A stretch of 64,000 nt of DNA. Source: a virus (Duplodnaviria; Heunggongvirae; Uroviricota; Caudoviricetes). Positions 48,292 through 62,171 of the stretch are shown here, one piece after another. A program made the position numbers and the translations under genes. The stretch covers positions 189,593-253,592 of the IMG/VR virus record IMGVR_UViG_3300020577_007233, one strand, 5' to 3'. Position 1 is the stretch's first letter; every line of letters begins with the position of its first letter. The notes under the pieces were generated by a model. The model was not told where the DNA came from and did not search any database. It was given only the letters and a program-made list of their open reading frames with translations.

Positions 48292-48343
48292 CTCTTGCGC
48301 GACTTTTTATTTCTAAGTCAAGAAAGGTAAGCTAGCTCTGCTC

Positions 48344-48907
48344 TTGCAATTACAGAGTATGAGAAAAGCATTCACACTGATCGAGCTTCTTGTTGTTATA
48401 GCTATCATTGCTTTGTTGCTTTCTATACTCATACCATCCCTTGCTAAAGCAAGAGACACAGCTAAGAGTATTGTATGCACTACAGGCCTAAAGCAAATCG
48501 CAACAGGCATTGCTATGTATGTTAACACTCATAGAGACTATCCAGATGCATATGGCAACCAATCTGTTGTTTCAGGTATCAACCTTCCTGATAAACTTGA
48601 ACCATACCTAGATGCTCCATTGCCAGTACCAGGCCAAAAGCTTAGTCCTTGGGTATGCCCCTTTGATAAAGAAATGTATCCTATTACGGGCGGTAGCTAT
48701 ATGTATGCCCCATACTACTATAGAATATGGTTCAAGCCCTCAATCACAACAATCTTTGAAACAGTCCCGCTGCTTCCAATGATAAGAGACTTCTATCCAA
48801 GAAGAAATAACCTAGTTCATATTGCTAGAGTTGATACATCTACTGATGAAGTTGACCAAACAACCTACGCTCCCGGCGCAAGCTGGCTTAATGCTAATCG
48901 TAGATAA
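48344..48907 (+). CDS. Prepilin-type N-terminal cleavage/methylation domain protein (type IV pilin/pseudopilin-like)
   Basis: MRKAFTLIELLVVIAIIALLLSILIPSLAKARDTAKSIVCTTGLKQIATG is a classic class-III signal. It resembles the DUF1559 (H-X9-DG) pseudopilin-like proteins of Planctomycetes and Verrucomicrobia. Confidence 0.7.
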   Translation: MQLQSMRKAFTLIELLVVIAIIALLLSILIPSLAKARDTAKSIVCTTGLKQIATGIAMYVNTHRDYPDAYGNQSVVSGINLPDKLEPYLDAPLPVPGQKLSPWVCPFDKEMYPITGGSYMYAPYYYRIWFKPSITTIFETVPLLPMIRDFYPRRNNLVHIARVDTSTDEVDQTTYAPGASWLNANRR

Positions 48908-49324
48908 TTACTTAGGTTTGCCAGGGTTCAACTTACGAGCAATGCCATTAACAACATCAACAGCCTCTTTGCTTGCTGGCATTCCCTTAACTCTGTTGTA
49001 CTCTTCGTGAGTACCTATCCAATACCATACATAGTAAGACTGATACTTCAAAGCTAAAGCTCTATGACCGCCGCCTACCTGAGCAGACCATATAGGTATC
49101 TTGAAGCCGTTTTCAACCATTGGCTTGATGCCAACTTGTTGAGGATTGGATAGCAACATTTGATACTTTTCGTTTGCAAGCTTCTGTATCTGAGGCGGCA
49201 ATTTTCTAAGCAAATCCCTAAAGCCCTTTGTCTGCCAATGACCAGTGCCAAAGCCAGCAGCCTTTGTTAGGCCATACTCGGCTCCTAGCTTGTCTTCATA
49301 TGATTGTGAAAAGATAACTTTCAT
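48908..49324 (-). CDS. RelE/HigB-superfamily-like protein (tentative)
   Basis: The C-terminal ...FKIPIWSAQVGGGHRALALKYQSYYVWYWIGTHEEYNRV resembles the HigB C-terminus (...HKIFVKHIVSHAEYDKL). Confidence 0.35.
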   Translation of the reverse strand: MKVIFSQSYEDKLGAEYGLTKAAGFGTGHWQTKGFRDLLRKLPPQIQKLANEKYQMLLSNPQQVGIKPMVENGFKIPIWSAQVGGGHRALALKYQSYYVWYWIGTHEEYNRVKGMPASKEAVDVVNGIARKLNPGKPK

Positions 49325-49758
49325 CAGAACTCCACTATCCTACCGCCAGGAAACTTGTTATACAAAAGCCTATGCACAAGAGACTGCGCTCTATCTAAAG
49401 CCGGACTCTTAACTACAGATATAATGCGATTCTTCGCATCATACCTTCCTTTGATGGCATTGAGCCTGCCACCAAACTCCGCTCCAAAAATCTCATCATG
49501 AACAAACGAATAACCCCTGTTGCCCTTCTTATACCACTCGCCAGCAGTCTCTGACTCTATCTGACCATTCCTAAAAATCCAAATAGCATCGTTCGGATTC
49601 GGAGGAGGTAGCTTGGCATTCCTATCGTCATGAGGATCAGGGTCGGCGCTAGTCCAACTATGACCTTGAGCAAGATAACCATGCCTCCACCAGGGATCTT
49701 CAGATGCTTTAAGTAGCTTATACCACATTGTTGGGCTGCTCTCCTGAGCGATTAGCAA
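49324..49758 (-). CDS. Hypothetical protein
   Basis: 144-aa ORF with a 1-nt overlap. Confidence 0.4.
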   Translation of the reverse strand: MLIAQESSPTMWYKLLKASEDPWWRHGYLAQGHSWTSADPDPHDDRNAKLPPPNPNDAIWIFRNGQIESETAGEWYKKGNRGYSFVHDEIFGAEFGGRLNAIKGRYDAKNRIISVVKSPALDRAQSLVHRLLYNKFPGGRIVEF

Positions 49759-50044
49759 TCATCTGCTGAAGCTGTTCTCTACTGAGAGGACCAGAGCCTT
49801 GCCTGTCAGGATATCCCGCATCAATCCACATGTTAACAGTTTTGGGATTTGTGTCATATGGGCTTATGTCAGCAAGTTGCTCTTGTCCATTAGGTATTCT
49901 AACATAATGGTAAGCCTTTACAACGTCTACAGAACCATCAGGGTTTCGCTCGTAGTCAAGCTCTATCCTGCACTGATGTCCCTTGTAGTCCCACTGCGAC
50001 TCATGCATAGCCGCCTTGTAAGATTTGCTAAATATACTCTTCAT
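49718..50044 (-). CDS. Hypothetical protein
   Basis: 108-aa ORF. Confidence 0.4.
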   Translation of the reverse strand: MKSIFSKSYKAAMHESQWDYKGHQCRIELDYERNPDGSVDVVKAYHYVRIPNGQEQLADISPYDTNPKTVNMWIDAGYPDRQGSGPLSREQLQQMIANRSGEQPNNVV

Positions 50045-50076
50045 TACACAACCTCCCTGCTCTGCATTAACTATTA

Positions 50077-50409
50077 CTAAAGAGGCCTATACCCTTCTAA
50101 TCTTGCTCTACTTACTCTTACTTCTCCACCATTCACACTGTCGCCTCCTGATACTATATCAGATTCATCATATGAATAGGTAAGCAAAAGCTCTTGATCA
50201 TCTGTCATTCCGCTGTAGTAATCGGTTGCGAACTGTTCGGTTGTTCCTAGAAAGGTATCGCCAGTAGTGCTGCCAACTTCTAAGCTATACTGTATCTTGT
50301 GATTAGCCAAAGAATAAGCAACGCCGTTGGCAAAGCCAACAACCTTAAACCCCGTTCTTCTACTTTGCGCGAATTTATACCACATTGCGTTTTTTGTACT
50401 CTTGTCCAA
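50077..50409 (-). CDS. Hypothetical protein
   Basis: 110-aa ORF. Confidence 0.4.
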   Translation of the reverse strand: MDKSTKNAMWYKFAQSRRTGFKVVGFANGVAYSLANHKIQYSLEVGSTTGDTFLGTTEQFATDYYSGMTDDQELLLTYSYDESDIVSGGDSVNGGEVRVSRARLEGYRPL

Positions 50410-51328
50410 GCCATCTCAAGGCTGCTGGCAACTGCTTAGGCCATACATACCTATATAGTTCGTTCTTCATAATTTGAACGCTCTTGTTGCCAAAGCCTCT
50501 CACCAAAGCTTTCTTTGCTTCTTCAAAAGTCCATCTGCCGCCATACCTATCAACAAAGTGTTGAACAAACTTGTTGGGATCAAAGTCTTCATCAACCCTA
50601 AATACTCTTCTCGTTGCATGATGAGACTCTCTATTGGCGCTGCCCTTAAACTCGTAATCCTTATTGCTCGCCAAGAACTGCTGTCTTGATACATTTGTAA
50701 GTTGACCGTTACGATTGTCTCGTAACCATACTCTTGTAATACGGTTAGGATTCAAGTGACCAACAAACAAGGCTTGGCTTTCGCCAAATCCTAATAGAGT
50801 ATTCGCAAGCTCTGGTCTTTCGCTTTGAGAGATAGGCGGAATGTTACGATCAACCGCTCGTTGCCTTGCCTTCATTCTCTCTTCTTCTCTTTTGGCCTTA
50901 CTGTTGCCAAAGTATTCAGCCATTTGTCCTTGAACGGTATATGAGCCGCTAGGCCATACGGGAGCCTCAAGCTCGTTCATGTACGCATGAAACTCAATTA
51001 TCCAAGCTCCAAACTCCGAAGCAGTCTTAGGATTGGTTGCTACAAATAAGCCTTGAGGATTGTTGTCGGCTTCGTAAGAGTATACTCGCCCAACCCTTGC
51101 TTTACCAGATAAGCCATGACGACATGCAGATATCGCATCCTCTAAATCACGAAAACCGTGAAACAATCTTACAGAGTCGTTGCTCTTGATAAGCGGTCTT
51201 TCTTCAGGGCTGCGACCAGGAGGTAATGTAAACCTGTCCGCTTCCTTCTGAAGCTCCATAGCCGTAATGTAAGAGTTGCTGTAAATCTTCTTCATTGTCA
51301 AAAGTCTCTTAGCTGTCAAAAATGTCAC
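50375..51328 (-). CDS. Hypothetical protein
   Basis: 317-aa ORF. Confidence 0.45.
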   Translation of the reverse strand: MTFLTAKRLLTMKKIYSNSYITAMELQKEADRFTLPPGRSPEERPLIKSNDSVRLFHGFRDLEDAISACRHGLSGKARVGRVYSYEADNNPQGLFVATNPKTASEFGAWIIEFHAYMNELEAPVWPSGSYTVQGQMAEYFGNSKAKREEERMKARQRAVDRNIPPISQSERPELANTLLGFGESQALFVGHLNPNRITRVWLRDNRNGQLTNVSRQQFLASNKDYEFKGSANRESHHATRRVFRVDEDFDPNKFVQHFVDRYGGRWTFEEAKKALVRGFGNKSVQIMKNELYRYVWPKQLPAALRWLGQEYKKRNVV

Positions 51329-52124
51329 GTTTCAAACAACTGTTGCAGTTGATGAAAGCAATGTATTCGCTACGTTCTGTATTCTCTTTCTTGACATTAC
51401 CAACCTTCTTGGACTTGACAAACTTCCAGTCATACATCGGGAAAACTTCTTTTGCTGTAGAACCATAGCAAAAGATGATCGGAGCTTTGATTCTTCCTAT
51501 TAGGTCAACAGTTGTTTGCGGATTGTAAGATTTGTCTTTGTAGAGCATGTGCGAAATTTCTTTCTTCTTCAAATCCAAGTACGGCGGATCTAAAAACACC
51601 AAATCCCCATCCTGCTCAACATAATCCGTAGCTTCGCCTAGTTCAAATCTTGAGCTTTGTAGCTTTGGAAGACACGCTATCGTCCTATCTACCGGCAAAA
51701 ACTTCTTCCCATACATCTTGTAACTTTGAAAGTCGCCAGCTATCAAACCACAACAGTTCACACGAATGTAGTTCAAAGCTCCTGCACACAACTCAGTCCA
51801 AGGTTCTAACCCAATCTCTAACATATCAAGCTTGCGTATGTCTGTAATGCCTTTTTCAAGGCTTCTGAGCCTAAATTTCTCAAGGTTGACTATATCTTCA
51901 GGTTTGCTTCTATGGAGATAGTAATAGATGGATATAACTAAAGGATTGCGGTCAATTCCGTATCCCTCAGTAGTCGTATTGAATATCATGCTAGCTGAGC
52001 CGCAATAAAGCTCGCAAAGCCTTTTATGAGATGGAAGGTCTTCGAGATAAGGAATGAGCCATCTCTTGCTGCCTGAATAGCAAAAAGCCATGTTCTCTTT
52101 GTGCGTGAAAATTGATTCGTTCAT
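51309..52124 (-). CDS. dam: N6-adenine DNA methyltransferase, Dam-like (D12 class)
   Basis: FLDPPYL (the DPPY motif) and an N-terminal FCYSGSKRWLIPYL like the Dam AdoMet-binding region. Confidence 0.8.
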   Translation of the reverse strand: MNESIFTHKENMAFCYSGSKRWLIPYLEDLPSHKRLCELYCGSASMIFNTTTEGYGIDRNPLVISIYYYLHRSKPEDIVNLEKFRLRSLEKGITDIRKLDMLEIGLEPWTELCAGALNYIRVNCCGLIAGDFQSYKMYGKKFLPVDRTIACLPKLQSSRFELGEATDYVEQDGDLVFLDPPYLDLKKKEISHMLYKDKSYNPQTTVDLIGRIKAPIIFCYGSTAKEVFPMYDWKFVKSKKVGNVKKENTERSEYIAFINCNSCLKRDIFDS

Positions 52125-52142
52125 CCTCGTAATATCGGATGA

Positions 52143-52820
52143 TTACTTGACCAAGTACGGCCAACGATAAGCAAAGAAGTTTGCCTTGAACTTTTCTAGC
52201 TGACCCGGAGTGATTGCTTTTCTATCAAATCCGTTAGCATAGTTCATGATGTTTTCATTCATAGATGAATCAGCAACATCTTCGTATGTGGGCTTAGGAG
52301 TGTCTTCAACCCCATCGTCAGGATCAAAGACATGCTCTAAACCTCCACCCCAATGCCCCATCTCATGAGCCAACACCCATTTGTTTGAGTGCTGCCTAGC
52401 AATAAGAATTACATTCTCTCCCTGAGATGCCATACTCGCTAAACCACAAATGTTGCGTTCCAGACCCTTATGCATCTCAGGCGCTATGTAAACATAGTAG
52501 ATGCTCAAAGTGTTGTAATACCTTTCTGCATCATCTCGGTAATAACTGAAGTCCTTATTGTCTTCTACGCACTCCACAATGGTGATGTCAAACTTGATCT
52601 TTACGTCACTAAACAAGTCTTCGCACGCTTTCAACTCTTTTTGAATCTCTTCCATGCTGCGAACTTGACAGCCATCCTTTTCTGCTATGGCAATCCTTGT
52701 TCGTATATGCAAATAACCATCAGAAGCTTTGAGAGAATCAACAAACCTATCGGTAGGGGCAGATACGCAACCCGCTATGCAGGTCAACATAATGCACAAG
52801 ATTGCAGCAATTTTTTTCAT
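52143..52820 (-). CDS. Metzincin-type zinc metalloprotease lipoprotein
   Basis: A signal peptide with lipobox (LTCIAGC) and HEMGHWGGGLEH, which matches HExxHxxGxxH. Confidence 0.65.
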   Translation of the reverse strand: MKKIAAILCIMLTCIAGCVSAPTDRFVDSLKASDGYLHIRTRIAIAEKDGCQVRSMEEIQKELKACEDLFSDVKIKFDITIVECVEDNKDFSYYRDDAERYYNTLSIYYVYIAPEMHKGLERNICGLASMASQGENVILIARQHSNKWVLAHEMGHWGGGLEHVFDPDDGVEDTPKPTYEDVADSSMNENIMNYANGFDRKAITPGQLEKFKANFFAYRWPYLVK

Positions 52821-52911
52821 ATACTGCCACCCCTTTTGTCCCCAAAATGTTTACAAAGCCTCCAAAACTGTTACCAGCGGATGCTTTGTCGTATTTTCAT
52901 ATATTCACTAA

Positions 52912-53187
52912 CTATTTTATGAGAGGCAATATGCGAGCAAATACCTGTTCATATCCTCTTGGATTCATGCTATCGTATTGAGTGTCCCAAAAATGACGAA
53001 CTACGGATTGAAGATTACGAAGTTTTGGGTGACCAACTACTCCATACTTTTTAGCCACATCGTCTTCTAATAAAGCAATATTCACTCTTCTGTCTGGCAT
53101 TTCATATTTGGCATATGGATCAGTGCTTTTGCCCTGAATATCAGCCGCTGATTTGTTCAAATAACTTTGAGTTTTTAGACTTTTCAT
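52912..53187 (-). CDS. Hypothetical protein
   Basis: 91-aa ORF lying downstream, in the minus direction, of the direct-repeat region. Confidence 0.4.
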   Translation of the reverse strand: MKSLKTQSYLNKSAADIQGKSTDPYAKYEMPDRRVNIALLEDDVAKKYGVVGHPKLRNLQSVVRHFWDTQYDSMNPRGYEQVFARILPLIK

Positions 53188-53358: not shown

Positions 53359-54219
53359 CTAACTAAAAATGTCATACACATCTTTAGAAGATTCTGTATC
53401 AAATCTTTCTTTCCAATGAAGCATCGTATGACAGTTATGACAGAGAACGTCACATTTATTAATTTCTTGTTGTATAGATTTTATGCTTTTGCCTTTTGCC
53501 ACTAATCTTCCTATTTCACTTGTTTTCTCTTTGGGATCTCGATGGTGAAAACATAAAACAGCCGGATGACTTTCTCCGCAGTCTTTACAAGGATGGTTAA
53601 GTTTGTATTCCCAAATATATTCCATTGCTTTATATTTTCTTCGAGTTAGGTTTTTTCGAATATCTAGTTTTTTGTTTTTGCATACTTGTTCTATTGTAGG
53701 AACTGAACTTTTTAACTTATTTTGCCTCTTTTTGAAATAATAGTGCTGAGCATTAGTGTACTTGTATTGCGTCTTCAAAAATGTTTGTTTCTCAAGTTCT
53801 TTGATTTCCGATAAGAGTCTTTCTTTTTCTTTTAGCCGACTCTCATGTTGTTCTAGAAAAATAGATTCTTGTTTATCTCTAAGATTTTCTATTTCTTTTC
53901 TTATTATTTCTTGCTCTAATTTCCGTTTTGCTTCGTTTTGTAGATTGATTTTCTGATTTTCTAATTCTACTAACTCACTTTGTTCTTTTTGAGCCTTTTC
54001 AAGATTCTTTAATAGAAGATCATATCGTTGCTGATTTTCTTCGCTCATCCCTTCGAGGGATATCTTTTTGATTTCTCTTCTAATAGAACCAAGATATTGT
54101 TCTAAGCGATATCTTTCTTTATTCTGAGACCGCCATTTTTTCTTGTATTCTCTTTGTTTTTGTTTATCTTTGTATGGCATATAGCTAGTTATCGTGTGTT
54201 TTACTATTCTACGTTTCAA
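53359..54219 (-). CDS. HNH endonuclease with K/E-rich coiled-coil N-terminus
   Basis: C-terminal CKDCGESHPAVLCFHHRDPKEK...CDVLCHNCH. A TTG start is inferred. It sits at the composition boundary. Confidence 0.7.
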   Translation of the reverse strand: MKRRIVKHTITSYMPYKDKQKQREYKKKWRSQNKERYRLEQYLGSIRREIKKISLEGMSEENQQRYDLLLKNLEKAQKEQSELVELENQKINLQNEAKRKLEQEIIRKEIENLRDKQESIFLEQHESRLKEKERLLSEIKELEKQTFLKTQYKYTNAQHYYFKKRQNKLKSSVPTIEQVCKNKKLDIRKNLTRRKYKAMEYIWEYKLNHPCKDCGESHPAVLCFHHRDPKEKTSEIGRLVAKGKSIKSIQQEINKCDVLCHNCHTMLHWKERFDTESSKDVYDIFS

Positions 54220-54395
54220 TCTTCACACTAATAGGAAAAAGGCCGTAGCTGTGTATACTTTAGGCTACCACTGGCGAATATAGATATCTTACTTTTCCTG
54301 AAGACCCCCCCTATGGGGTACGGGGTACTCCTTTTATCATTATGAGTGGGAAATAACAACTCCCATTCTTCCACTGCGCCAGGCCCCCACCCCTC

Positions 54396-54578
54396 CTAAG
54401 AAAGTCTAGCCCTTCTTAAGCTGCTCCTCAGTTCCTTAAGCTTTGCCTTGAACTTGGCATGGATGGATGGGTCATCCTTGCAGCCTGCGTATCCGCCAGC
54501 GGCAACGTCTCTGCGCCATTGCGAGTAGTCGTCCTCTGTCTTATCAATCTGCTGTTGGATGGTCATGGGCTTGTTCAT
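54396..54578 (-). CDS. Small hypothetical protein (60 aa)
   Basis: Minus ORF directly downstream of motif copy 54597. Confidence 0.45.
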   Translation of the reverse strand: MNKPMTIQQQIDKTEDDYSQWRRDVAAGGYAGCKDDPSIHAKFKAKLKELRSSLRRARLS

Positions 54579-54685
54579 ACCTACAACCTTTGCGCAGAAA
54601 GTCTAGCCTCCTTAACTTGGTACGGAACCCATACCCTTGCGGGCTAGGTTAGGTTGGCTCAACCCTTTACCCGTACCGTGCGCCG

Positions 54686-54892
54686 TTAGCCCTTCTTGGG
54701 CTTTGTTACCTTGAGGCTGATGCGTCCCTTGTTGTTGGAGGCGAAGGCGAGGACTCGGTTGAGCATATGGTTGGCCTTCTTCCAACCGGCGACTCGGACA
54801 ACATCATCGACTTCGAGGGAAACGTCGATGTTAAGACGAGTCTGCTTGCTTGAGCGGGACTTGGTTGCCTTGACTGTTTTGGTTGCTGCCAT
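54686..54892 (-). CDS. Small basic protein (68 aa), possible DNA-binding
   Basis: Downstream of motif 54911, after an AAGGA RBS. Confidence 0.45.
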   Translation of the reverse strand: MAATKTVKATKSRSSKQTRLNIDVSLEVDDVVRVAGWKKANHMLNRVLAFASNNKGRISLKVTKPKKG

Positions 54893-54916
54893 GTTCCTTG
54901 TTTCCTTTGAGGAAGT

Positions 54917-55405
54917 CTAGCCCTCAACCCAATACGCTCGGCTGCTTTCGGTGACGTAGTTATTTTCCGTCATCTGCCAAGCCTTTCCATTGTGACGAAT
55001 GGAGTTTGTAAAGTATTTCGGCTTGTTGTTTTCGTCGAGGATGGCGATGCTGTAATCGCCAGCGGTCTTGGGAGGGTCAGTAAAGACGCAACGAAGTTTT
55101 GCCTTGAAACTGACAGGCTTGTAGGCTTTCTTCTTTCTCGGCTTGTCCAGCCGAACGAGGTCGGTAAAGACTTTGCCGTAGGGAAGGGGAGGATGGCCCT
55201 CCTTGTCGGTCGGAGCCTTGACTGAGGCGACAACCGCATACTCCTTAATATGACGATTGTAGGCTTCCCATTGCTTTGCGATTTCGGTTGCTTCGGCAAT
55301 GGTTTTTGGTTCTGGACCGCTGGGGCCAAAGTTGCCCTGCCAAGTTCCATCAACTTTGTTGCCGTTCGTTTTTTCGACTTCGATGATGGAGTAGTTCATG
55401 TTCAT
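54917..55405 (-). CDS. Hypothetical protein (162 aa)
   Basis: Downstream of motif 55418. Its TAG stop is the CTAG core of motif 54911. Confidence 0.5.
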   Translation of the reverse strand: MNMNYSIIEVEKTNGNKVDGTWQGNFGPSGPEPKTIAEATEIAKQWEAYNRHIKEYAVVASVKAPTDKEGHPPLPYGKVFTDLVRLDKPRKKKAYKPVSFKAKLRCVFTDPPKTAGDYSIAILDENNKPKYFTNSIRHNGKAWQMTENNYVTESSRAYWVEG

Positions 55406-55428
55406 TACGAAGGGTCAGGAAGTCTAGC

Positions 55429-55557
55429 CTACCGCTGAGAGTTCTTGGGCTGCCGCTGCTTGTTGCGTTCTCTCCGCCGTTCGTTCCTCCGCTGTTTGCG
55501 CTCTTGTTCGGCTGCCCAGCGTTGGATGGCGTTCGCATCTCTTTCAAAGTCGCTCAT
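55429..55557 (-). CDS. Small Arg/Gln-rich protein (42 aa)
   Basis: Hand translation gives MSDFERDANAIQRWAAEQERKQRRNERRRERNKQRQPKNSQR. It lies downstream of motif 55576. The 65-aa ORF listed in the track is in another frame and crosses a motif, so it was rejected. Confidence 0.35.
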   Translation of the reverse strand: MSDFERDANAIQRWAAEQERKQRRNERRRERNKQRQPKNSQR

Positions 55558-55637
55558 GCTTATGAGTTGTTGTTAGAAAGTCTAGCCTTGTTAAATGACA
55601 AACCCCCTTACGGGGGTTGTTTGGGGTTGGGGTTGAC

Positions 55638-56006
55638 TTAGGCGACCGCTGCCGCTTTGGGCTTGGGCGGGAGGCTGATGCGCCCGCCGCGACGGATGAC
55701 GTAGGGGATGGGGCTGTCGTTGGGGACGGTGATGCCGTAGATGCTGCTGAGCATCCCAGTCGCCTGCTTGTCGCCGCCGAGGTCGCGGATGGTCTTGGCG
55801 GCGATTCGGATGGTCTGGCGAGTGCCGCTGGCGATGGTTGCGCGGCCCTTGGTCATGATCGTTCCGATGAGGCTCTTGACTTCGGCATCGGAGAGGTTGG
55901 GGTTGGCGGCGCGGACGGCGTTGATAGCGAAATCGACGCTGTGGATGCTGCTATTGAGGATGGTGAGGGTGAAGGGCTTGGCGGTCTTCTTGGTCTTGGT
56001 CGTCAT
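55638..56006 (-). CDS. Hypothetical protein (122 aa)
   Basis: RBS AAAAGGAAAC. Downstream of motif 56071. Confidence 0.5.
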   Translation of the reverse strand: MTTKTKKTAKPFTLTILNSSIHSVDFAINAVRAANPNLSDAEVKSLIGTIMTKGRATIASGTRQTIRIAAKTIRDLGGDKQATGMLSSIYGITVPNDSPIPYVIRRGGRISLPPKPKAAAVA

Positions 56007-56087
56007 TGGGCGTTTCCTTTTCTTTGTTAGGGGCGAGGCATTCGTCCCTTATGGCTCTTGGAAGTTGCGAGAAAGTCTAGCCTTGAA

Positions 56088-56381
56088 TTACCCCTGCCTC
56101 AAACTGAGTTGAGGGATAACAATGCGGCTGGCGATGGCGGCTGTTTCCTTGACGATGTGCCGAGTTCCCTTAAGTTCGGCTGTCTTGGAGTTGCCTTCGA
56201 GTTGGCGGTTCTGCTTGGCGATTCTGCGCCCGAGGGTTTGGGGCGTAACTTCGTTGACCTTGAAGAAACGGCGAGCGTTGCCTTGCCGTTCTGCTTCTTC
56301 ATCGAGGGAATCGAGGCCGCTACCCTTTTGGGCTGCGGCTCGTTGACGGTTGAGGTTGCGGAGGGCTTTTTCGTTGAACAT
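56088..56381 (-). CDS. Hypothetical protein (97 aa)
   Basis: RBS AAAGGA. Downstream of motif 56416. Confidence 0.5.
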   Translation of the reverse strand: MFNEKALRNLNRQRAAAQKGSGLDSLDEEAERQGNARRFFKVNEVTPQTLGRRIAKQNRQLEGNSKTAELKGTRHIVKETAAIASRIVIPQLSLRQG

Positions 56382-56461
56382 TGGGCTGGTCCTTTCTGCT
56401 GCCTATTTCTGGCGAGAAAGTCTAGCCTTGCCTTTCGGCAACGATGAAAGCCTTGCCTTTG

Positions 56462-56950
56462 TTAGCCCTTTGCCTTGCCGACCTTGACCACCTTGAGGAG
56501 AAAGCGAGCGCGACGGCCTGCGTGCTGTCCAGGCTTGCGGTTGAAAACGATGTCGGCCCTTGCCTTGCTCATGCCAGCATCGCGCCGCTTCTTGCGGTTG
56601 ATGACGGTTTGCTTCTTGATGGGGGTGATGCTGATGGGGTGGCCGAGGTCGAACACCGTACCGGCGGCTTCGGGCTGTCCTGCGTCAAACTGCTTGGCGG
56701 ACACAAACTGCTGAGCGTTGGGCGAGAAAACGAGGCGGTGGCCGTTGGCGATGGCTCGGATTTCGAGGCGGTCATTCTGAAAGACGACGGGATCTCCGTA
56801 GCCAGCGAGGCGCATGCCTTCGGCGTGTTGGCAATGCCGAGGGTCTTGGAGTTTGCACTCCTTCGCATCGGGCAGCGAGTAGAGGCGAGGCATCTTCTTG
56901 TTGCCCACCTTGAAATACTTGTGCTTGGGATTGGGCTTGGTCGTGGTCAC
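56462..56950 (-). CDS. Basic hypothetical protein (162 aa)
   Basis: GTG start with an AGGA RBS. Downstream of motif 57003. Confidence 0.45.
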   Translation of the reverse strand: MTTTKPNPKHKYFKVGNKKMPRLYSLPDAKECKLQDPRHCQHAEGMRLAGYGDPVVFQNDRLEIRAIANGHRLVFSPNAQQFVSAKQFDAGQPEAAGTVFDLGHPISITPIKKQTVINRKKRRDAGMSKARADIVFNRKPGQHAGRRARFLLKVVKVGKAKG

Positions 56951-57008
56951 TTCTTCTGTCCTTTCATGGAATGGGGTTGACGATGGGGCTTGTTATTTGC
57001 GCGAAAGT

Positions 57009-57431
57009 CTAGCCGATTGCCTGTGCCTTGCGTGCTTCGTATTCCTCTTTGGCCTTCACCCACTTGTCGAGGGTTTCGATTGCTGCCTCTGGCACGCCTT
57101 CGCGGAAGTTGTCTGACCAAAGGCGGCAATACGCTCCGTCGCTGTATTCGCTGAGGCCAATCCATTGAACGTGGTTGTTCTCATCGAGGAACATGCAACC
57201 ACCAAAGCGGCTGAATGTGCTTGCCTTGGGCTTGTTCCAAACTTCGCCTGCCACCTTGGGGTTGGTTGTCTGGCTCCAGAATCGCACGCCCTTGTTGGGG
57301 CTGTATTCGAGCCAGTACCGAATCTTGCAGCGAAGTCGGAACCCAAAGGGGTAATCATCGACGACGTATGCGGTTTCGGGTGAGATGTGTCCCTTGAGGA
57401 GTTTCGTGACGGTTGGGAGGGTATTGGGCAT
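57009..57431 (-). CDS. Hypothetical protein (140 aa)
   Basis: Downstream of motif 57449. Its stop TAG lies inside motif 57003. Confidence 0.5.
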   Translation of the reverse strand: MPNTLPTVTKLLKGHISPETAYVVDDYPFGFRLRCKIRYWLEYSPNKGVRFWSQTTNPKVAGEVWNKPKASTFSRFGGCMFLDENNHVQWIGLSEYSDGAYCRLWSDNFREGVPEAAIETLDKWVKAKEEYEARKAQAIG

Positions 57432-57454
57432 GGTTCTTGTTTCTTGCGCGAAAG

Positions 57455-57586
57455 TCTAACCCTGCCTTGCGCCTCTGCGATTGAGGAGTTCGGTTGTGAT
57501 GGCGAGCATGGCCTCAACGTCGCCTTCCATCTTGGCGAGTTCGTAGGCATCGCGGAGGTGATTGAACGTCATTTGGTCGAGTCGCA
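57455..57586 (-). CDS. Small protein (43 aa)
   Basis: Hand translation gives MRLDQMTFNHLRDAYELAKMEGDVEAMLAITTELLNRRGARQG. The stop TAG lies inside motif 57449. Downstream of motif 57627. Confidence 0.35.
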
Positions 57587-57844
57587 TGGGTCGAGTCCTT
57601 TCGTTGTTACATATAATAAGTTGCCAGAAAGTCTAGTCGTTGGCGGCTCGGAGAGTTCCACTCATAACGATTACCGCTAGTTAAGCTCAACAAGGCCCTC
57701 AAAGGGCCTTGTGAGCTGCCGTTGGATGATTCGCTTGTTTGGTTGGGGTTAGTTCTGTTTCATGGTTTGTTCTCCCTTGGTTTGTCGGAGTTGACTTGTC
57801 TGATGACTCTTAACAAGGGGCTGAAAGTCTAGCCCCCTTGTCTC

Positions 57845-58195
57845 TTACCATCCGAGTTCCTTCGGGCGGTTGGTATTCTCTACCCTCTTGCGTTGGGGCT
57901 GAGGGTTGCGATTCTGAGCGGCGGCAACCGCTGCGCCGAGGAATCCTTCGATATTGGCGACGCGCTGGCCGAGTTCTTCGGCATCCTTCTTCTTCTTCCG
58001 TTCGTCCATGATAGCGTTCATGGCGAGGGAGCGAAGTCCTTGCGCTTCCGCCCGTTCCAACAAAACTCGTTCGAGTTCTGTCAGTTCGTCGTAGGCGAGG
58101 AATTGTTGGGGGGCTGGCTTGTCCAGACCGCCGTATTGTTCGGCGGCAAGGATGAGCATGGGGTCCATTCGACGGAGTTGGTTGGGGTTGGGCAT
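57845..58195 (-). CDS. Hypothetical protein (116 aa)
   Basis: Downstream of motif 58214. Confidence 0.5.
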   Translation of the reverse strand: MPNPNQLRRMDPMLILAAEQYGGLDKPAPQQFLAYDELTELERVLLERAEAQGLRSLAMNAIMDERKKKKDAEELGQRVANIEGFLGAAVAAAQNRNPQPQRKRVENTNRPKELGW

Positions 58196-58232
58196 GACTC
58201 TTATTTCCTTTGGGAAAGTCTAGCCCTTCGAT

Positions 58233-58526
58233 TTAACGACCTGCTTTGGCTTGGATGCGGACGTTGTAGAAGTTGCCCTCTCGTTGGTCGCTCTGTACGT
58301 TCCCAAAATGAACGATCCAATTCCTCTCGTCAAACTCCTTGACAGTCCTTCTGATGACTCTCTCATTGACAAGGGAAGTGGCAATGGTTGTATCTACCGT
58401 GCTGCCAGTAACGTATTGGCGAGTGAGAGTCTGAATGAGGGAATCGACCACCTTGACGAACATGGCTTCGTCTTGGTCTTGCTGAATCTTGTCGAGTTTG
58501 CTTGGCGTTGGGATGTTGATGTTCAT
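58233..58526 (-). CDS. Hypothetical protein (97 aa)
   Basis: Translationally coupled to the upstream gene. Confidence 0.45.
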   Translation of the reverse strand: MNINIPTPSKLDKIQQDQDEAMFVKVVDSLIQTLTRQYVTGSTVDTTIATSLVNERVIRRTVKEFDERNWIVHFGNVQSDQREGNFYNVRIQAKAGR

Positions 58527-58714
58527 TAGATTCTCCCTGTTGCAGTAAACTCCACCTTGAGGCCGTTAGAAAGGGTCACGATGCCCTCAAGGGCTGCTGC
58601 GAACGATGAGGGATGAAGGTTGCGAGAGTTGTTGCACTTGCTGCATGGTCCTCCCTTGAGGCCGCTGTGCTTGCCGCAGTCTTTCTTAACAAGTTTGATG
58701 GGCGGTTGTTCCAT
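58526..58714 (-). CDS. Small Cys-containing protein (62 aa)
   Basis: CGKHSGLKGGPCSKCN. Downstream of motif 58733. Confidence 0.45.
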   Translation of the reverse strand: MEQPPIKLVKKDCGKHSGLKGGPCSKCNNSRNLHPSSFAAALEGIVTLSNGLKVEFTATGRI

Positions 58715-58771
58715 GCGTTCTACTTCTTGCGCGAAAGTCTAACCCTTGCGCAGTGGTGGCGCAGTGTTGCA

Positions 58772-59020
58772 TTACTGATTTGCTTCGAGTTGCGCCTTGT
58801 ACCGCTGAAAGTTGTGACGTTGTGTTGCTTGGGCTGCTCGGTACTCAACTTGACAACTGATGCAGCGAATCTCTGCGCTGCTTGTTCGTTCGAGTTTCTC
58901 AAAGGGCTGATGGCAGTCGTAACAAATGCCGACGATTCTTCTTGCGATGCAAGTATCGCAAGCAACAACGGTGGGGATTTCTTCCCCTTTGCAGAATCCG
59001 CATTTGTCGTTGCTGGGCAT
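58772..59020 (-). CDS. Cys-rich zinc-ribbon-like protein (82 aa)
   Basis: CGFC...CDTC...CYDCH...CISC. Downstream of motif 59039. Confidence 0.5.
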   Translation of the reverse strand: MPSNDKCGFCKGEEIPTVVACDTCIARRIVGICYDCHQPFEKLERTSSAEIRCISCQVEYRAAQATQRHNFQRYKAQLEANQ

Positions 59021-59044
59021 GACTCTATCTTCCGTTCTGGAAGT

Positions 59045-59356
59045 CTAGCCCTTGATGCGAATACTTCCCTTCATGCGTTCATCATCGCACCAACAACCGC
59101 AGACTCCTCCGCAACCTGGGCAACCACCCTTGATTGTGACATCGGCTTCGAGAGCGTAGGCTGCATTGCCGATGATTCGAGCGGTCTGATTCCAAATGGC
59201 TTGACTGGTGCCGTCAAGTTCCTTTGCTGACTTGTCCGAAACCATTTGGCAGGCTTTGGCAGTCGCCTTAAGCATGCGCTCGCCGTATTGCTCGATGAAA
59301 ACGAACATTGACAGAGCGAGTTCATCGTCGGAAAGTTGTTTGGGAGGGTTGGGCAT
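59045..59356 (-). CDS. Cys-rich protein (103 aa)
   Basis: GGCPGCGGVCGCWC. Its stop TAG lies inside motif 59039. Downstream of motif 59375. Confidence 0.5.
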   Translation of the reverse strand: MPNPPKQLSDDELALSMFVFIEQYGERMLKATAKACQMVSDKSAKELDGTSQAIWNQTARIIGNAAYALEADVTIKGGCPGCGGVCGCWCDDERMKGSIRIKG

Positions 59357-59390
59357 GGCTTTTACTTCCTGCGAGAAAGTCTAGCCCTTA

Positions 59391-59669
59391 TTAGTTGGGC
59401 ATCTTATGTCTTGCCGCTGCTGCGAGTTCAGGCGAGACAACGAATCCCATGCCAAGCCAGTTACGGTCGGCGAGAGAGGTGAACGCTTCCATCTTGGCCG
59501 CCTCAATTGGCCGCTTCTTCATTCGCTCAAAAGCGATCCAAATGCGCTTGATGGTTCGAGGAGTCGGTCGTTTGGGATGATGAAGCAGAGCGTAAACGTG
59601 GACGATGCTTGGCAGGTGCATCATGCGACGGATGCTCATGTTATTCGGATTGGGGCAGTCCGTTGTCAT
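59391..59669 (-). CDS. Hypothetical protein (92 aa)
   Basis: Downstream of motif 59687. Confidence 0.45.
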   Translation of the reverse strand: MTTDCPNPNNMSIRRMMHLPSIVHVYALLHHPKRPTPRTIKRIWIAFERMKKRPIEAAKMEAFTSLADRNWLGMGFVVSPELAAAARHKMPN

Positions 59670-59881
59670 TGCTTTTGTTTATTGAGCGAAAGTCTAGTCT
59701 TTGGGGCATTGGGCTGGAAGGACGTTCACTCATAATGATTACGATGTTTAAGTAGCCAGAGCGGCTTAGGGGCATTGAGTTCCCTATCCGCTGCTCCCTG
59801 CAATGCTCCCCTCGGAACGTGTCCGAGAGGCAGGTCGCCTGGCTTTTCCCATTGTAAGGCTTTGACCCGAAAGTCTAGCCC

Positions 59882-60070
59882 TTAGATTCTGTTTCCCTTG
59901 CTGTCGCAAGGTCCGAGCGTAACCCAATGAGCGTCGTAGGGTTGGGGCTTGACAAGGGGTGGCCCCTTCCAAGTTCCGTTCCTCCGTTGCTCCATCTCAT
60001 GCGCCCATGAGCCTTCGTAGCGGCTGATGGGTTCGTACTTGCCGTTCGGTTTCTTCTTTCCAAGTCCCAT
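59882..60070 (-). CDS. Small protein (62 aa; start moved to ATG at 60070)
   Basis: Starting at MGLGKKKPNGKY places the ATG 18 nt from motif 60089. The track's TTG start would be only 6 nt from the motif. Confidence 0.4.
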   Translation of the reverse strand: MGLGKKKPNGKYEPISRYEGSWAHEMEQRRNGTWKGPPLVKPQPYDAHWVTLGPCDSKGNRI

Positions 60071-60099
60071 GCTTCTTAACAAGGGTTGGAAAGTCTAGC

Positions 60100-60513
60100 C
60101 TACAGTTTGCTGACTCTTTCGCCGTCCCCAACGAGGTCGTACTCGGGAAATTCCTTGCTGAGTTTGGTAAGGCGTTCGCCGAGTTCGTTGGCTTCGAGTT
60201 CCCTTCTGTCCCAAAAGCCAGCCCCATGACCGTTGCGAGTGAGCCAAAAGTCGTGGCCGTACTGAGCGGCATCCGCTTCTTCGAGTTCCTCGGTGGTAAG
60301 TTCTTCGAGCATCATGGTTGCAAACTGAGCGCAGTCGGCAACCATATCAAAGTAAGTCGCCGGCTCGATATCATCGCCGTCGTACTGACCGTCCAAGTTC
60401 TCTGAGGTGGCTTGATCGCCTTCGTTGGTACTTGACCAAAGGGCGCAAACGATGTACGCCTTCACAAAGTTGTCAAACCAATTCGAGGGGTTGGAGTTGA
60501 AGTTCTTACTCAC
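60100..60513 (-). CDS. Acidic hypothetical protein (about 137 aa)
   Basis: Start inferred at a GTG that overlaps the upstream small gene's TGA (GTGA coupling). The 249-aa track ORF crosses motif 60708 and is treated as an artefactual extension. Confidence 0.4.
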   Translation of the reverse strand: MSKNFNSNPSNWFDNFVKAYIVCALWSSTNEGDQATSENLDGQYDGDDIEPATYFDMVADCAQFATMMLEELTTEELEEADAAQYGHDFWLTRNGHGAGFWDRRELEANELGERLTKLSKEFPEYDLVGDGERVSKL

Positions 60514-60689: not shown

Positions 60690-60713
60690 GACCTTTATTT
60701 CTGGCGCGAAAGT

Positions 60714-61046: not shown

Positions 61047-61146
61047 GCTTAAGGATTTGCTGATGAAAGTCTAGCCGATTGCGTTGCACTCATAACGATT
61101 ATGGTCGCTTGTTATTTCCTTGCACTCATAACGATTTCGGTTAGTT

Positions 61147-61186: not shown

Positions 61187-61223
61187 TGCCCAATGTTCGT
61201 TTGGAAAGTCTAGCCCTCGGCTT

Positions 61224-62155: not shown

Positions 62156-62171
62156 GAAGTCTAGCCCTGTT

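Follow-up and report, generated by a model that had tools for sequence, protein, structure and literature searches.

The stretch of DNA analysed here, called the window throughout, is 64,000 nt long and comes from an uncultivated giant phage, with relatives known from assembled contigs of 333 to 506 kb. The features on which the following discussion is built are given below in window coordinates.

6623..53187, minus strand: bulk of the window, ~42% GC, mostly minus-strand genes and no boxes (T at four-fold sites 0.46)
53359..54180, minus strand: HNH homing-endonuclease gene of 273 aa, a low-GC insert (0.31), matching phrog_3106 and phrog_2255 (E about 1e-21)
54230..54370, no strand: zone of compositional change, i.e. 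the reported junction (200-nt GC 0.34 to 0.53; maximum-likelihood change points 54295 and 54370)
54277..54296, minus strand: 20-mer AAAAGTAAGATATCTATATT, located between HNH gene and module, without variation across three genotypes and occurring once in the window
54336..54348, minus strand: motif 2, CACTCATAATGAT, at the junction; its only copy in gene sense apart from a degenerate one, with position and orientation kept in both relatives
54396..64000, minus strand: high-GC module, in which ~25 small genes (42-241 aa) follow one another in a single direction and continue past the right window edge (GC 0.55, GC3 0.66, C at four-fold sites 0.50)
60100..60513, minus strand: phrog_1915-family gene inside the module; best annotated homologues in the terminal repeats of ~310-kb Caulobacter phages
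62172..62489, minus strand: ClpS-family adaptor gene inside the module (PF02617, E 2.4e-19), with an orthologue at 54% identity in a ~500-kb phage

The bulk encodes an RNR, a thymidylate synthase, a sigma factor, SNF2, ART-PolyVal, a UvrD-like helicase and a Dam-type methylase. Stop-codon recoding was rejected for the 'ORF-poor' positions 1-6600, since this region is one giant ORF running off the window edge; the latter was also considered as a virion RNA polymerase and dismissed, given its DUF3383 structural repeats and the lack of any PHROG match. The large proteins at 37297-42401 were likewise dropped as RNA polymerase subunits for lack of any PDB, Pfam or PHROG match.

The initial annotation had described an abrupt GC step, and sliding-window GC, a change-point fit and a tetranucleotide profile all find it, and find it sharp. 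In 1-kb windows, GC is 0.37-0.49 from 1 to 53 kb, 0.336 from 53 to 54 kb and 0.51-0.57 from 55 to 64 kb, while in 200-nt windows it passes from 0.34 (54100-54299) to 0.53 (54300-54499), with a maximum-likelihood change point at 54295-54370. The idea of a two-part composition held only as far as the step is concerned: three segments were found, with GC of 0.419 on the left, 0.319 over the HNH ORF (53300-54295) and 0.550 up to the window end, so that the HNH gene lies far below both of its neighbours. Strand-symmetrised tetranucleotide distances reach 0.472 when bulk and module are compared, as opposed to 0.227 +/- 0.031 among chunks of the bulk and 0.166 inside the module. The junction does lie directly upstream of the HNH gene and does carry an inverted motif copy, as had been noticed; this copy is the minus-strand CACTCATAATGAT at 54336-54348. 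The hairpin that can be drawn at 54296-54350 is no more stable than shuffled sequence (z 0.07). As a separate observation, the junction 20-mer AAAAGTAAGATATCTATATT also matches four unrelated AT-rich contigs by chance.

A composition and a k-mer signature that change sharply at a single point, in a window whose two halves both lack close matches in annotated phages (megablast of each half against 50,697 of them returned none), would suit an assembly chimera, that is two unrelated genomes joined at ~54.3 kb, which had been proposed as the alternative to horizontal transfer. The comparison with related phages speaks against it. The window is not a chimera because two related genotypes, represented by contigs of 333 kb and ~500 kb, show the same step and a homologous junction. 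In the 333-kb relative the GC profile runs from 0.52-0.58 to 0.30-0.39 and then ~0.43, and this contig ends within the module; in the ~500-kb relative the homologous junction was assembled identically in four data sets (contigs of 494, 370, 506 and 60 kb), all four with the same GC step, and the module is internal, at 297-327 kb of the 494-kb contig. Moreover, an independent single-run assembly, Logan contig L001, spans the junction and equals window positions 54122-63021 at 100% identity without gaps. On the evidence of these assemblies, a chimeric origin can be given practically no credence. All three diverged genotypes retrieved, out of about six present in public data, have the module, the step and the junction DNA in common. 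Other searches were less productive: a 241-aa module protein, used with a method that reaches close relatives only, retrieved nothing; a pattern search of IMG/VR with the window's box variant followed by ATG gave only single-copy chance matches; and among the matches listed for the relative's box variant followed by ATG, which include L029 and L080, most are due to chance.

The HNH gene announced at the border is real, as its PHROG matches attest, and likely starts at the ATG at 54180 rather than at the TTG at 54219. Its copies in the window and in the 333-kb phage share 86% of amino acids and 78% synonymous identity, and on this sequence comparison it looks like a recently spread homing endonuclease located at the boundary; nothing connects it to delivery of the module.

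The right-hand segment was rightly called a module, being a coherent set of small genes, all of them on the minus strand according to gene calls on the identical Logan contig. Its extent is a lower bound, with at least 9.7 kb in the window and at least 30 kb in one relative. Among its ~25 genes only the ClpS and phrog_1915 products are recognisable. ClpS was rejected as a host marker, its only matches being distant (32-48%) and located on Bacteroidota and Sulfurovum MAG contigs without boxes. Orthologues of module genes are present in both relatives (10 of 22 in the ~500-kb phage), and the module is nearer to that of the ~500-kb phage (59% amino acid identity) than to that of the 333-kb phage (42%); this closeness, established on module orthologues, the only ones compared for the ~500-kb phage, could reflect exchange of modules within the clade or the true phylogeny.

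How such a module came to differ in composition was approached through its codons. The third-position switch previously noted was recovered (GC3 0.415 in the bulk versus 0.661 in the module) and consists almost wholly of a change from T3 to C3, with amino acid usage little altered. From bulk to module, C at four-fold sites goes from 0.18 to 0.50 and T from 0.46 to 0.20. G stays low, and G3 is not raised in the module (0.14 versus 0.11). Bulk codons are mainly T- and A-ending and module codons C-ending; ATA, CTA, TTA, GTA and AGR codons are avoided in the module (ATA 0.00, CTA 0.00, GTA 0.03), and arginine codons shift from AGR to CGN (0.70 to 0.22). The relative synonymous codon usages (RSCU) of module and bulk are uncorrelated in the window (r = 0.06), i.e. 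two distinct synonymous usages coexist, and module RSCU is conserved between phages (r = 0.84). At the same time, four-fold sites of module orthologues compared between the window and the 333-kb phage are saturated (0.40 identical, 0.44 expected), and both lineages have C3 of ~0.6 in the module and T3 of 0.46 in the bulk. Because the contrast persists despite saturated synonymous sites, it is maintained and not a relic of horizontal transfer, and the high GC is a by-product of maintained codon choice and not of foreign ancestry.

This bears directly on horizontal acquisition, under which the module would have come from a higher-GC phage or bacterium and kept the composition of its donor, the HNH gene at the border having perhaps aided insertion. 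As in a horizontally acquired genomic island, GC (0.55 versus 0.42) and k-mer signature (0.472 versus 0.227) are sharply and abruptly atypical and a mobile-element gene sits exactly at the border; furthermore, the module genes evolve fast and are patchily shared (the 10 of 22 cited above), and the proximity to the module of the ~500-kb phage could mean swapping within the clade. However, unlike a genomic island, the module is found in all relatives along with the step and the junction DNA, its composition is at equilibrium with a contrast kept in each lineage, G3 is not elevated, although a GC-rich donor acting through simple GC pressure should have raised it, and the module appears functionally wired to phage tRNA genes, given that the same box precedes, and would drive, the phage's own tRNA cluster in the relatives. 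No integrase, att-like site or flanking direct repeat was found at the near border of the module, the far border lying outside the window. A transfer as old as the clade itself is conceivable, but it would leave the persistence of the contrast unexplained. Of the horizontally acquired module once proposed, the coherence stands and the recent acquisition is not supported, since three diverged genotypes share module, step and junction DNA; acquisition as the cause of the step is quite improbable.

A region-specific mutational bias, arising if the module were replicated, repaired or transcribed in its own way, for example owing to a replication origin at the junction or to very heavy transcription, could also move the sense strand from T to C without codon selection. 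GC skew changes sign at the junction with unchanged gene orientation, its cumulative minimum falling at ~54-55 kb, and the shift, which all lineages have kept, differs between the strands, C3 greatly exceeding G3. AT skew, however, keeps its sign across the junction, and several patterns operate at the level of codons and not of bases, namely the total avoidance of ATA, CTA and GTA and the replacement of AGR by CGN. Specific palindromes are also purged beyond what codon usage predicts, and the module RSCU correlates with that of Phycisphaerae and not with GC-matched E. coli, which points to tRNA matching (see below for both). Such a bias is an unlikely explanation.

Selection on the mRNA itself would keep module transcripts poor in U and rich in A and C, either to leave them unstructured, or to let initiation proceed rapidly on short leaders, or as protection from a ribonuclease that targets U or UA during takeover, the higher GC being a side effect. 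The sense strand of the module has A 0.285, C 0.287, G 0.252 and T 0.177; it folds with -24.1 kcal/mol per 100 nt versus -28.8 for the antisense strand; despite the higher GC, folding at start regions is weaker than that of the bulk (-6.3 versus -7.5); and the UA odds ratio of the module is 0.52. Yet UA is low in the bulk too (0.60-0.62), the folding differences are modest, and neither the switch from AGR to CGN nor the codon match with Phycisphaerae is accounted for. As the principal cause, mRNA-level selection is unlikely; it is compatible with, and not exclusive of, the explanation preferred below, namely a block of genes tuned to the tRNAs of the host.

The identity of this host comes from a single gene family: the cellular homologues of the phage pilin are H-X9-DG prepilins of Planctomycetota/Phycisphaerae, so that the host is probably a Phycisphaerae planctomycete. 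Compared with three Phycisphaerae contigs, the RSCU of the module correlates at r 0.60-0.75 and that of the bulk at -0.14 to -0.45, and the module gives r 0.13 with a GC-matched segment of E. coli; this comparison consists of three 20-kb bacterial fragments and one E. coli control, for a host assigned by pilin homology only. As to phage tRNAs, ARAGORN detected none in the 64-kb window, and an Rfam scan of the window gave no known RNA family. In contrast, a relative has 17 tRNA genes within its box array, including Leu-TAG, Leu-TAA, Val-TAC, Lys-TTT and CAT anticodons. The tRNAs of this relative, an incomplete set, also comprise GNN anticodons that read C-ending codons (Leu-GAG, Ile-GAT, Val-GAC, His-GTG), and because of these the partition of tRNAs between the two codon sets is not clean.

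Codon partition according to time of expression has precedents. Cowe and Sharp reportedly described in 1991 such a partition in T4, along with phage tRNAs. As in T4 and Sf14, gene sets of one phage differ here in synonymous codons, late genes in those systems fitting phage-encoded tRNAs and early genes the host pool. Early and late phage genes often differ in codon usage (PMC5683454), and phage tRNAs have been linked to late genes in Sf14 (PMC12482277). Unlike in these phages, the contrast is far larger here (C at four-fold sites 0.50 versus 0.18; RSCU r = 0.06), is spatially abrupt to the point of being visible as a GC step, and is tied to a box that also stands before tRNA genes.

The module is further distinguished by the loss of short palindromes. 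AGCT occurs twice versus 27.9 expected (z -7.0), compared with 161 versus 169 in the bulk (z -0.8); CCGG three times versus 21.8 (z -5.4, observed/expected 0.14), compared with 26 versus 43.4 in the bulk (z -3.6, observed/expected 0.60); and GATC five times versus 24.0 (z -4.7), compared with 99 versus 119 in the bulk (z -2.5). In a relative's module GATC is found 9 times versus 49.5 expected (z -8.2).

In this respect the module recalls the first-step-transfer (pre-early) region of T5/BF23, where small takeover genes form a discrete block that belongs to a separate transcription class and is set apart from the rest of the genome. To our knowledge, no 12-point GC step or codon switch has been described for T5. 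The T5 region is characterised by two-step injection, location in a terminal repeat and an injection-stop signal, whereas the module is known from sequence alone; and T5 pre-early genes use host sigma-70 promoters, unlike the private box of each module gene. Restriction hits T5-like and T7-like phages only via sites in the first-injected region (PMC10644984, PMC12455610). In T5 it acts solely through the pre-early block (PMC10644984); the much more marked loss of AGCT, CCGG and GATC from the module agrees with this, and the same principle holds for the leading regions of Autographiviridae (PMC12455610).

The private box mentioned above is a 12-nt sequence, GGCTAGACTTTC, present in ~29 copies that are confined to the high-GC part and all lie on one strand. 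Its copies (11-mer positions, end coordinates shortened to their last three digits) and the associated hairpins are as follows.

54401..63754, minus strand: array of 29 boxes, consensus (a/g)GGCTAGACTTTC
54401-54411, 54598-608, 54912-922, 55419-429, 55577-587, 56072-082, 56417-427, 57004-014, minus strand: boxes, first group
57451-461, 57628-638, 57824-834, 58215-225, 58734-744, 59040-050, 59376-386, minus strand: boxes, second group
59689-699, 59870-880, 60090-100, 60709-719, 61066-076, 61205-215, 61987-997, minus strand: boxes, third group
62048-058, 62156-166, 62524-534, 63174-184, 63454-464, 63729-739, 63744-754, minus strand: boxes, fourth group
55601..55618, minus strand: hairpin resembling an intrinsic terminator, directly upstream of the box at 55577-55587 (terminator scan and folding)
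61145..61215, minus strand: box and ~60-nt non-coding unit ending in a strong terminator hairpin (MFE -28.8 kcal/mol, z -5.7; terminator scan)
62125..62166, minus strand: box followed directly by a terminator hairpin (MFE -12.5, z -3.5; terminator scan)

With up to two mismatches, the 13-mer form of the box has 28 matches in the module and two elsewhere in the window, 2.1 being expected by chance; the core CTA[GA]ACTT occurs 25 times in sense and never in antisense within the module, and not at all in the 10 kb downstream. No recurrent motif of the bulk is comparable, the best 10-mer there reaching six copies. The distance from box to ATG is exactly 19 nt in 15 of 30 copies, and some other boxes have an ATG ~35 nt downstream, with an AAAGGA Shine-Dalgarno sequence. 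The relatives have their own variants, AACTAAACTTCY and GACTAAACTTYC, in which the pattern T-A-n-n-n-T and the spacing are kept, and a -10-like hexamer, TAGACT or TAAACT, is invariant across all variants (A at position 2, T at position 6). Neither a -35 hexamer at 16-18 nt nor a TGn extended -10 was detected near the boxes, upstream positions having no information content and TGn being replaced by GGC, GAC or AAC, and a scan of the module for sigma-70 consensus promoters found none.

The box is most likely a promoter because the variants of the relatives also precede tRNA genes. Boxes stand before tRNA or tRNA-like genes and terminator-only units, and they also follow terminators; a location both before tRNA genes and after terminators speaks for a role in transcription rather than translation, and the succession of terminator and box around 55601..55618 fits re-initiation of transcription at the box. 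For the same reason, a start-associated sequence acting at the translational level was rejected, the box not being tied to protein starts only. One box abuts the 5′ end of a tRNA, which is unexpected for a promoter, and an RNA-processing site would equally be expected to show a fixed distance to the ATG. Another candidate function was a sigma-28-type -35 element, which we take to be TAAAGTTT and which the box, as CTAAACTTT, resembles; it was discarded since the ATG would then fall upstream of the predicted transcript start. Neither a single-subunit RNA polymerase nor a gp55-like protein was found within the 64-kb window, most of the genome being outside it, and the only sigma factor in the window, at 14782-15636, is FliA-like (regions 2-4).

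Phage-specific single-element promoters that co-vary with a polymerase or sigma factor are exemplified by those of T7, T3 and SP6 and by the late promoters of T4 (TATAAATA, with gp55). Like them, the box is a short conserved sequence without a -35 element, repeated many times on one strand at fixed spacing, and as among T7, T3 and SP6, related phages carry systematically different variants (GGCTAGACTTTC, AACTAAACTTCY, GACTAAACTTYC). Unlike in T7, T3, SP6 and T4, the promoter is putative and the window holds no detectable cognate factor of either kind. In cluster K mycobacteriophages, start-associated sequences are found within a few nucleotides of the start codon, and their role is presumably in translation. 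In halovirus HF2, intergenic repeats have been shown to carry promoters (PMC8707807). The box shares with both a conserved element of 12-13 nt immediately upstream of many genes, but differs from the cluster K sequences in being placed 19 nt upstream and in occurring before tRNA genes and terminator-only units. As for the genes served, the host-takeover module of Bacillus phage SPO1 is likewise contiguous; its small genes, about two dozen in number and for the most part without known function, are densely provided with strong early promoters and terminators, and the ~25 genes of 42-241 aa here form a comparable cluster, all in one direction. The SPO1 module is located in the terminal redundancy and depends on host sigma-A promoters that have both a -35 and a -10 element, unlike the box, which has no -35 element; we know of no compositional step in SPO1.

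Taken together, these data make it reasonably probable that the module is a separately regulated and presumably early block, tuned to host tRNAs and to unprotected entry, of which the GC step marks the border. The step would then be the proximal border of a dedicated expression block composed of small genes on one strand plus, in the relatives, a tRNA cluster, with a phage-specific 12-nt box (GGCTAGACTTTC here) ahead of nearly every unit. This box would function as a single-element promoter of the -10 type (TAnnnT) with leaders of ~14 nt. The C-ending codons of the module and its avoidance of ATA, CTA, TTA, GTA and AGR, set against a T- and A-ending rest of the genome, would most likely be caused by timing, the block being read first by the host tRNA pool, before phage tRNAs and anti-restriction functions are available. 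Reading before anti-restriction functions would also account for AGCT, CCGG and GATC being depleted there far more than in the bulk. The step and its conservation, the box array, the codon switch, the avoidance of palindromes and the linkage of box and tRNA genes are observed, and to these we add by inference a promoter role of the box, an early time of expression, the identity of the host and selection through tRNAs.

Going further, a more speculative reading, which we hold to be possible though doubtful, joins these elements into a first-wave compartment in a clade of 0.3-0.5-Mb phages probably infecting Phycisphaerae, with codon usage as a temporal switch. The compartment would be self-contained, tens of kb long, and carry small takeover genes and the tRNA cluster; every unit would be fired by a private promoter co-evolving with a putative phage-specific recognition factor; and common restriction palindromes would have been cleared from its DNA, this DNA entering or acting without protection. 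The codons of the compartment would match the host, while the other ~95% of the genome would form a second codon dialect, efficiently readable only after the tRNAs of the compartment are made. If such a temporal switch is true, it would be a clear-cut case, found in nature, of huge phages scheduling their gene expression by means of codon usage and phage tRNAs, the box would become a sequence handle for first-wave and anti-defence genes in an uncultivated megaphage clade, and a lead would be gained on a Phycisphaerae host, in a phylum with very few known viruses. Whatever the fate of this reading, abrupt GC steps in metagenomic phage contigs are routinely taken as chimeras or horizontal transfer, and a third cause is documented here, a conserved, regulated compartment with its own putative promoter box and codon dialect; such genomes would be cut in error by binning and quality-control tools that divide contigs wherever composition breaks.

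A second motif accompanies the boxes, with nine matches to CACTCATAATGAT versus 1.8 expected by chance; besides the junction copy, a count of seven was obtained for the plus strand at 57.6-63.0 kb. The positions located inside the module are the following.

57659-671, 59727-739, 61087-099, 61123-135, 62080-092, 62970-982, plus strand: motif 2, antisense to the module genes (range 57.6-63.0 kb)
62102-114, minus strand: degenerate sense copy of motif 2

As a sigma-70 or sigma-28 promoter, motif 2 was rejected for want of a consistent -35 element and because six of the nine copies, with C rather than T at the Y position, have no final T of a -10 hexamer; as part of a composite promoter it was rejected on account of its variable spacing to the box (10-27 nt). 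Under the first-wave reading, the antisense-oriented motif 2 (CACTCATAAYGAT) would later shut the compartment down. Inside the module, a hairpin comes after each copy, and 10-27 nt separate the copy from a box on the opposite strand; in the ~500-kb phage five of five copies are antisense according to the same rule.

The abrupt compositional change reported in the initial annotation is confirmed, and the best reading is that it borders a compartment under separate regulation. GC in 1-kb windows is 0.37-0.49 over 1-53 kb, dips to 0.336 at 53-54 kb and is 0.51-0.57 beyond 55 kb, as far as the window end; in 200-nt windows it rises from 0.34 (54100-54299) to 0.53 (54300-54499). By likelihood change-point analysis the break falls at 54295-54370, and a three-segment fit gives GC values of 0.419, 0.319 (53300-54295) and 0.550. 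Two of the checks proposed for this claim, sliding-window GC and tetranucleotide profiles, show the break at this position: the strand-symmetrised tetranucleotide distance between the bulk (the ~42% GC genome to the left) and the module (the high-GC minus-strand array of small genes to the right) is 0.472, versus 0.227 +/- 0.031 among bulk chunks and 0.166 between two module chunks.

The switch in codon third positions noticed by eye is equally clear in minus-strand gene models, with GC3 rising from 0.415 in the bulk to 0.661 in the module, GC1 from 0.51 to 0.56 and GC2 from 0.37 to 0.43, while amino-acid usage is nearly alike. The step is a T3-to-C3 switch with G3 essentially constant, not general GC pressure. 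Certain codons are nearly absent from the module, and relative synonymous codon usage (RSCU) is uncorrelated between the two regions (r = 0.06).

Base fractions at four-fold sites, and codons as shares of their own amino acid's codons (module; bulk)
Four-fold C: 0.50; 0.175
Four-fold T: 0.20; 0.46
Four-fold A: 0.165; 0.26
Four-fold G: 0.14; 0.11
ATA/Ile: 0.00; 0.25
CTA/Leu: 0.00; 0.10
TTA/Leu: 0.01; 0.06
TTG/Leu: 0.05; 0.22
GTA/Val: 0.03; 0.17
AGR/Arg: 0.22; 0.70
AAA/Lys: 0.19; 0.37

Strand-specific mutation bias is a live alternative for, or contributor to, the codon shift, in line with the reversal of GC skew at the junction. The cumulative skew minimum lies there (54-55 kb) and the sign flips with gene orientation constant, which may be a mere consequence of C-ending codons or a replication-related landmark. 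Selection on mRNA properties is likewise a live alternative or contributor: the module sense strand is U-poor (0.177) and folds more weakly than the antisense strand (-24.1 versus -28.8 kcal/mol per 100 nt), and module start regions are less structured than those of the bulk although their GC is higher.

Within what assemblies can show, the alternative of an assembly chimera is refuted. L001, an independent Logan contig built from one sequencing run, matches window 54122-63021 at 100% identity without gaps, and so spans the step and reaches ~60 nt inside the HNH coding sequence. The comparison with related phages, also proposed initially, shows step and junction in both relatives. In a 333-kb relative GC falls into the same three parts (0.52-0.58, then 0.30-0.39, then ~0.43), and its junction DNA is homologous to that of the window, in the order GGCGCAGTGGAAG, CACTCATAAYGAT, 39-48 nt, AAAAGTAAGATATCTATATT and HNH start; in a ~500-kb phage the same junction is contig-internal and identical in four assembled data sets.

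As for the proposed horizontal acquisition of an early-gene module, a coherent small-gene module is indeed present, but recent acquisition is not supported by the comparison of the three genotypes that share it. Protein identity between genotypes is 35-59% for module orthologues and 56-86% for neighbouring bulk genes. At conserved four-fold codons of module orthologues, the window and the 333-kb phage share the third base at 0.40, versus 0.44 expected by chance. Despite such saturation, C3 stands at 0.60 in one lineage and 0.64 in the other, and T3 in bulk orthologues is 0.46 in both. The window and the ~500-kb phage also agree in module RSCU (r = 0.84). A composition inherited from a donor would have decayed at saturated sites; that of the module is maintained by something region-specific.

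Genes called on L001 are all on the minus strand and small (43-241 aa), and upstream of the module genes lies a 12-nt box, (a/g)GGCTAGACTTTC, with ~29 copies at 54.4-63.8 kb in one orientation throughout (minus-strand reading). Its information content, summed over positions, is ~22 bits; a 13-mer version with <=2 mismatches has 28 matches in the module and 2 weak ones elsewhere (2.1 expected by chance), and the bulk holds no comparable recurrent motif. The spacing from the box 11-mer to the ATG is exactly 19 nt in 15 of 30 copies, most others having a longer leader (~35 nt) with an AAAGGA Shine-Dalgarno sequence. Variants occur in the 333-kb phage (AACTAAACTTCY) and in the ~500-kb phage (GACTAAACTTYC; 59 copies on a single strand over at least 29.6 kb), and upstream of at least one orthologous gene, that for a 68-aa protein (54686-54892), the box varies by genotype. 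All three genotypes share the core CTA[GA]ACTT, the pattern T-A-n-n-n-T and the spacing of 19 nt.

In the relatives, boxes lie 6-20 nt upstream of tRNA or tRNA-like sequences and 4-8 nt downstream of tRNA 3' ends, and 17 tRNA genes lie within the distal part of one relative's array. Some window boxes come directly after intrinsic terminators, and two are followed by a terminator hairpin only, with no gene:

61145-61215, minus: box and hairpin (61204-61145; -28.8 kcal/mol, z -5.7)
62125-62166, minus: box and hairpin (-12.5 kcal/mol, z -3.5)

Both units may be small RNAs driven by the box, or decoys; copies of a second motif face them on the opposite strand, so that sense/antisense pairs are possible. 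The tRNA neighbourhood and the terminator-linked boxes favour a transcription signal over a translation signal, and the favoured reading is a putative -10-type single-element promoter giving leaders of ~14 nt. No conserved -35 sequence is found upstream of the window's copies, and a sigma-70 consensus scan of the module yields no promoter. An RNA-processing site is a possible alternative; in a relative, one box directly adjoins the 5' end of a tRNA. The window has a single sigma factor (14782-15636, minus; regions 2, 3 and 4), with FliA/sigma-28/WhiG as its closest kin. The sequence of the box core, CTAAACTTT, is similar to the sigma-28 -35 consensus, TAAAGTTT; the distance to the ATG does not suit a -35 element. 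In two relatives' contigs (L080 1862-1894, minus; L148 12919-12944) a box precedes, by 6-20 nt, a fragment that resembles the 5' half of a tRNA (acceptor and D-arm), with an intact tRNA gene (Met-CAT, Lys-TTT) coming directly after it; such fragments may be degenerate duplicates or unusual split/processed tRNAs.

The second motif, CACTCATAATGAT, is present in inverted form at the junction (54336-54348), as initially described, with seven plus-strand copies to the right (9 matches versus 1.8 expected). CACTCATAAYGAT is antisense to genes in 6/6 full copies inside the window's module and 5/5 in that of the ~500-kb phage, and gene-sense at the junction only, in 3/3 genotypes. Every copy has a hairpin after it and an opposite-strand box at a variable distance of 10-27 nt. 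Its geometry does not match a sigma-70 promoter; it could be a divergent promoter making antisense RNAs or a regulator-binding site.

The HNH gene placed at the junction is genuine, with matches to PHROG HNH families (E about 1e-21), its start being most likely the ATG at 54180. Between the window and the 333-kb phage its protein identity is 86% and its synonymous identity 78%, as would be expected of a homing endonuclease that has spread recently and sits at the module's edge. Since the 333-kb phage carries two extra low-GC, HTH-rich ORFs between the HNH gene and the bulk (L015 2767-4600; 287 and 309 aa, multiple HTH domains), this border seems to serve low-GC selfish genes as a landing site. 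In the spacer that follows the HNH stop, before the next gene, are two 37-nt direct repeats 46 nt apart (53232-53314; GCYAAGGTATCCC...GCGMAAAWTTWAAGTGACG), and a third partial copy (~53320-53350) is seen by eye and is absent from the repeat-search output. Upstream of the HNH gene, in the relatives as well as in the window, a related element (GGTATCC / CCTATTAG) occurs again.

The two compartments also avoid different palindromes under a null model preserving protein sequence and codon usage. The bulk (7-53 kb) strongly avoids TTAA (64 versus 166.6 expected, z -12.8), AATT (z -6.8) and TATA (z -6.0), with AGCT and GATC near expectation.

Palindromes, observed/expected (module; bulk; ~500-kb phage module)
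AGCT: 2/27.9 (z -7.0); 161/169 (z -0.8); 21/46.2 (z -4.9)
CCGG: 3/21.8 (z -5.4); 26/43.4 (z -3.6); 15/32.0 (z -4.5)
GATC: 5/24.0 (z -4.7); 99/119 (z -2.5); 9/49.5 (z -8.2)

A gene for a D12-class adenine methylase lies at 51309-52124. In T5-like and T7-like phages restriction acts through sites of the first-injected region only (PMC10644984, PMC12455610). Module RSCU correlates with that of three Phycisphaerae genome fragments of GC 0.56-0.69 (r = 0.60, 0.66, 0.75; versus the bulk, -0.20, -0.45, -0.14), a single GC-matched E. coli control giving r = 0.13 with the module. The tRNAs in the relative's box array include readers of A-ending codons (Leu-TAG, two Leu-TAA, Val-TAC, Lys-TTT, CAT anticodons) and also GNN tRNAs.

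The compartment's genes use a C-ending, seemingly host-like codon dialect with common restriction sites stripped out; in the rest of the genome codons end in T and A, and a large set of phage tRNAs could serve them. First-wave timing fits: the block would act early, in takeover, ahead of phage tRNAs and protective functions. Timing, promoter activity, recognising polymerase and host are in each case what we infer. For T4, the link between phage tRNAs and late genes was reportedly made by Cowe and Sharp in 1991. Codon usage often differs between early and late phage genes (PMC5683454), and phage tRNAs have been tied to late genes (PMC12482277). Such codon differences and the avoidance of restriction sites by first-entry regions are each known separately. 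Early-type modules with dedicated promoters and temporal codon partition are known kinds of feature; here they occur in a poorly known huge-phage clade, and the unusual points are how large and sharp the contrast is, that it is coupled to a private box per gene, and that the megaphage clade conserves it.

Nucleotide searches of either half against 50,697 annotated phages gave no close relative. Contigs carrying relatives, from IMG/VR and ENA, are 333,623, 370,652, 494,120 and 505,915 bp long, so the window belongs to a huge, uncultivated phage. The left 54 kb encode the following:

Ribonucleotide reductase, thymidylate synthase
Sigma factor, HNH endonucleases
SNF2 helicase, ART 'polyvalent-protein' domain
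UvrD-like helicase, Dam-type methylase
Type IV pilin-like protein (48344-48907, plus): prepilin-like, with N-terminal methylation motif
Within 34100-47115, large conflict-type gene run: SNF2 helicase (1056 aa); uncharacterised 916-aa and 709-aa proteins (the latter with DUF4116); 780-aa protein with ART-PolyVal domain; UvrD-like helicase fused to a topoisomerase zinc ribbon

Among cellular homologues of the pilin, prepilin/H-X9-DG (DUF1559) proteins of Planctomycetota, most of them from Phycisphaerae, predominate overwhelmingly, and this homology may be a clue to a Phycisphaerae host; orthologues occur in about six phage genotypes (94-63% identity), one on a 495-kb contig. The 34100-47115 run is like the 'polyvalent protein' anti-defence arsenals of large phages. 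Window 1-6570 looks ORF-poor because a single minus-strand ORF of >2,190 codons, starting near 6570 and leaving by the left edge, is absent from the ORF listing; three stretches of it match DUF3383 (E 3e-29) and none of it a PHROG, suggesting a giant protein of structural (tail) type. At 12283-13622 (minus), two paralogous genes, adjacent and overlapping, match a sialyltransferase-like PHROG (phrog_4603); a further HNH endonuclease gene follows (13619-14233). An isolated, uncharacterised low-GC ORF (0.33) lies at 23982-24566.
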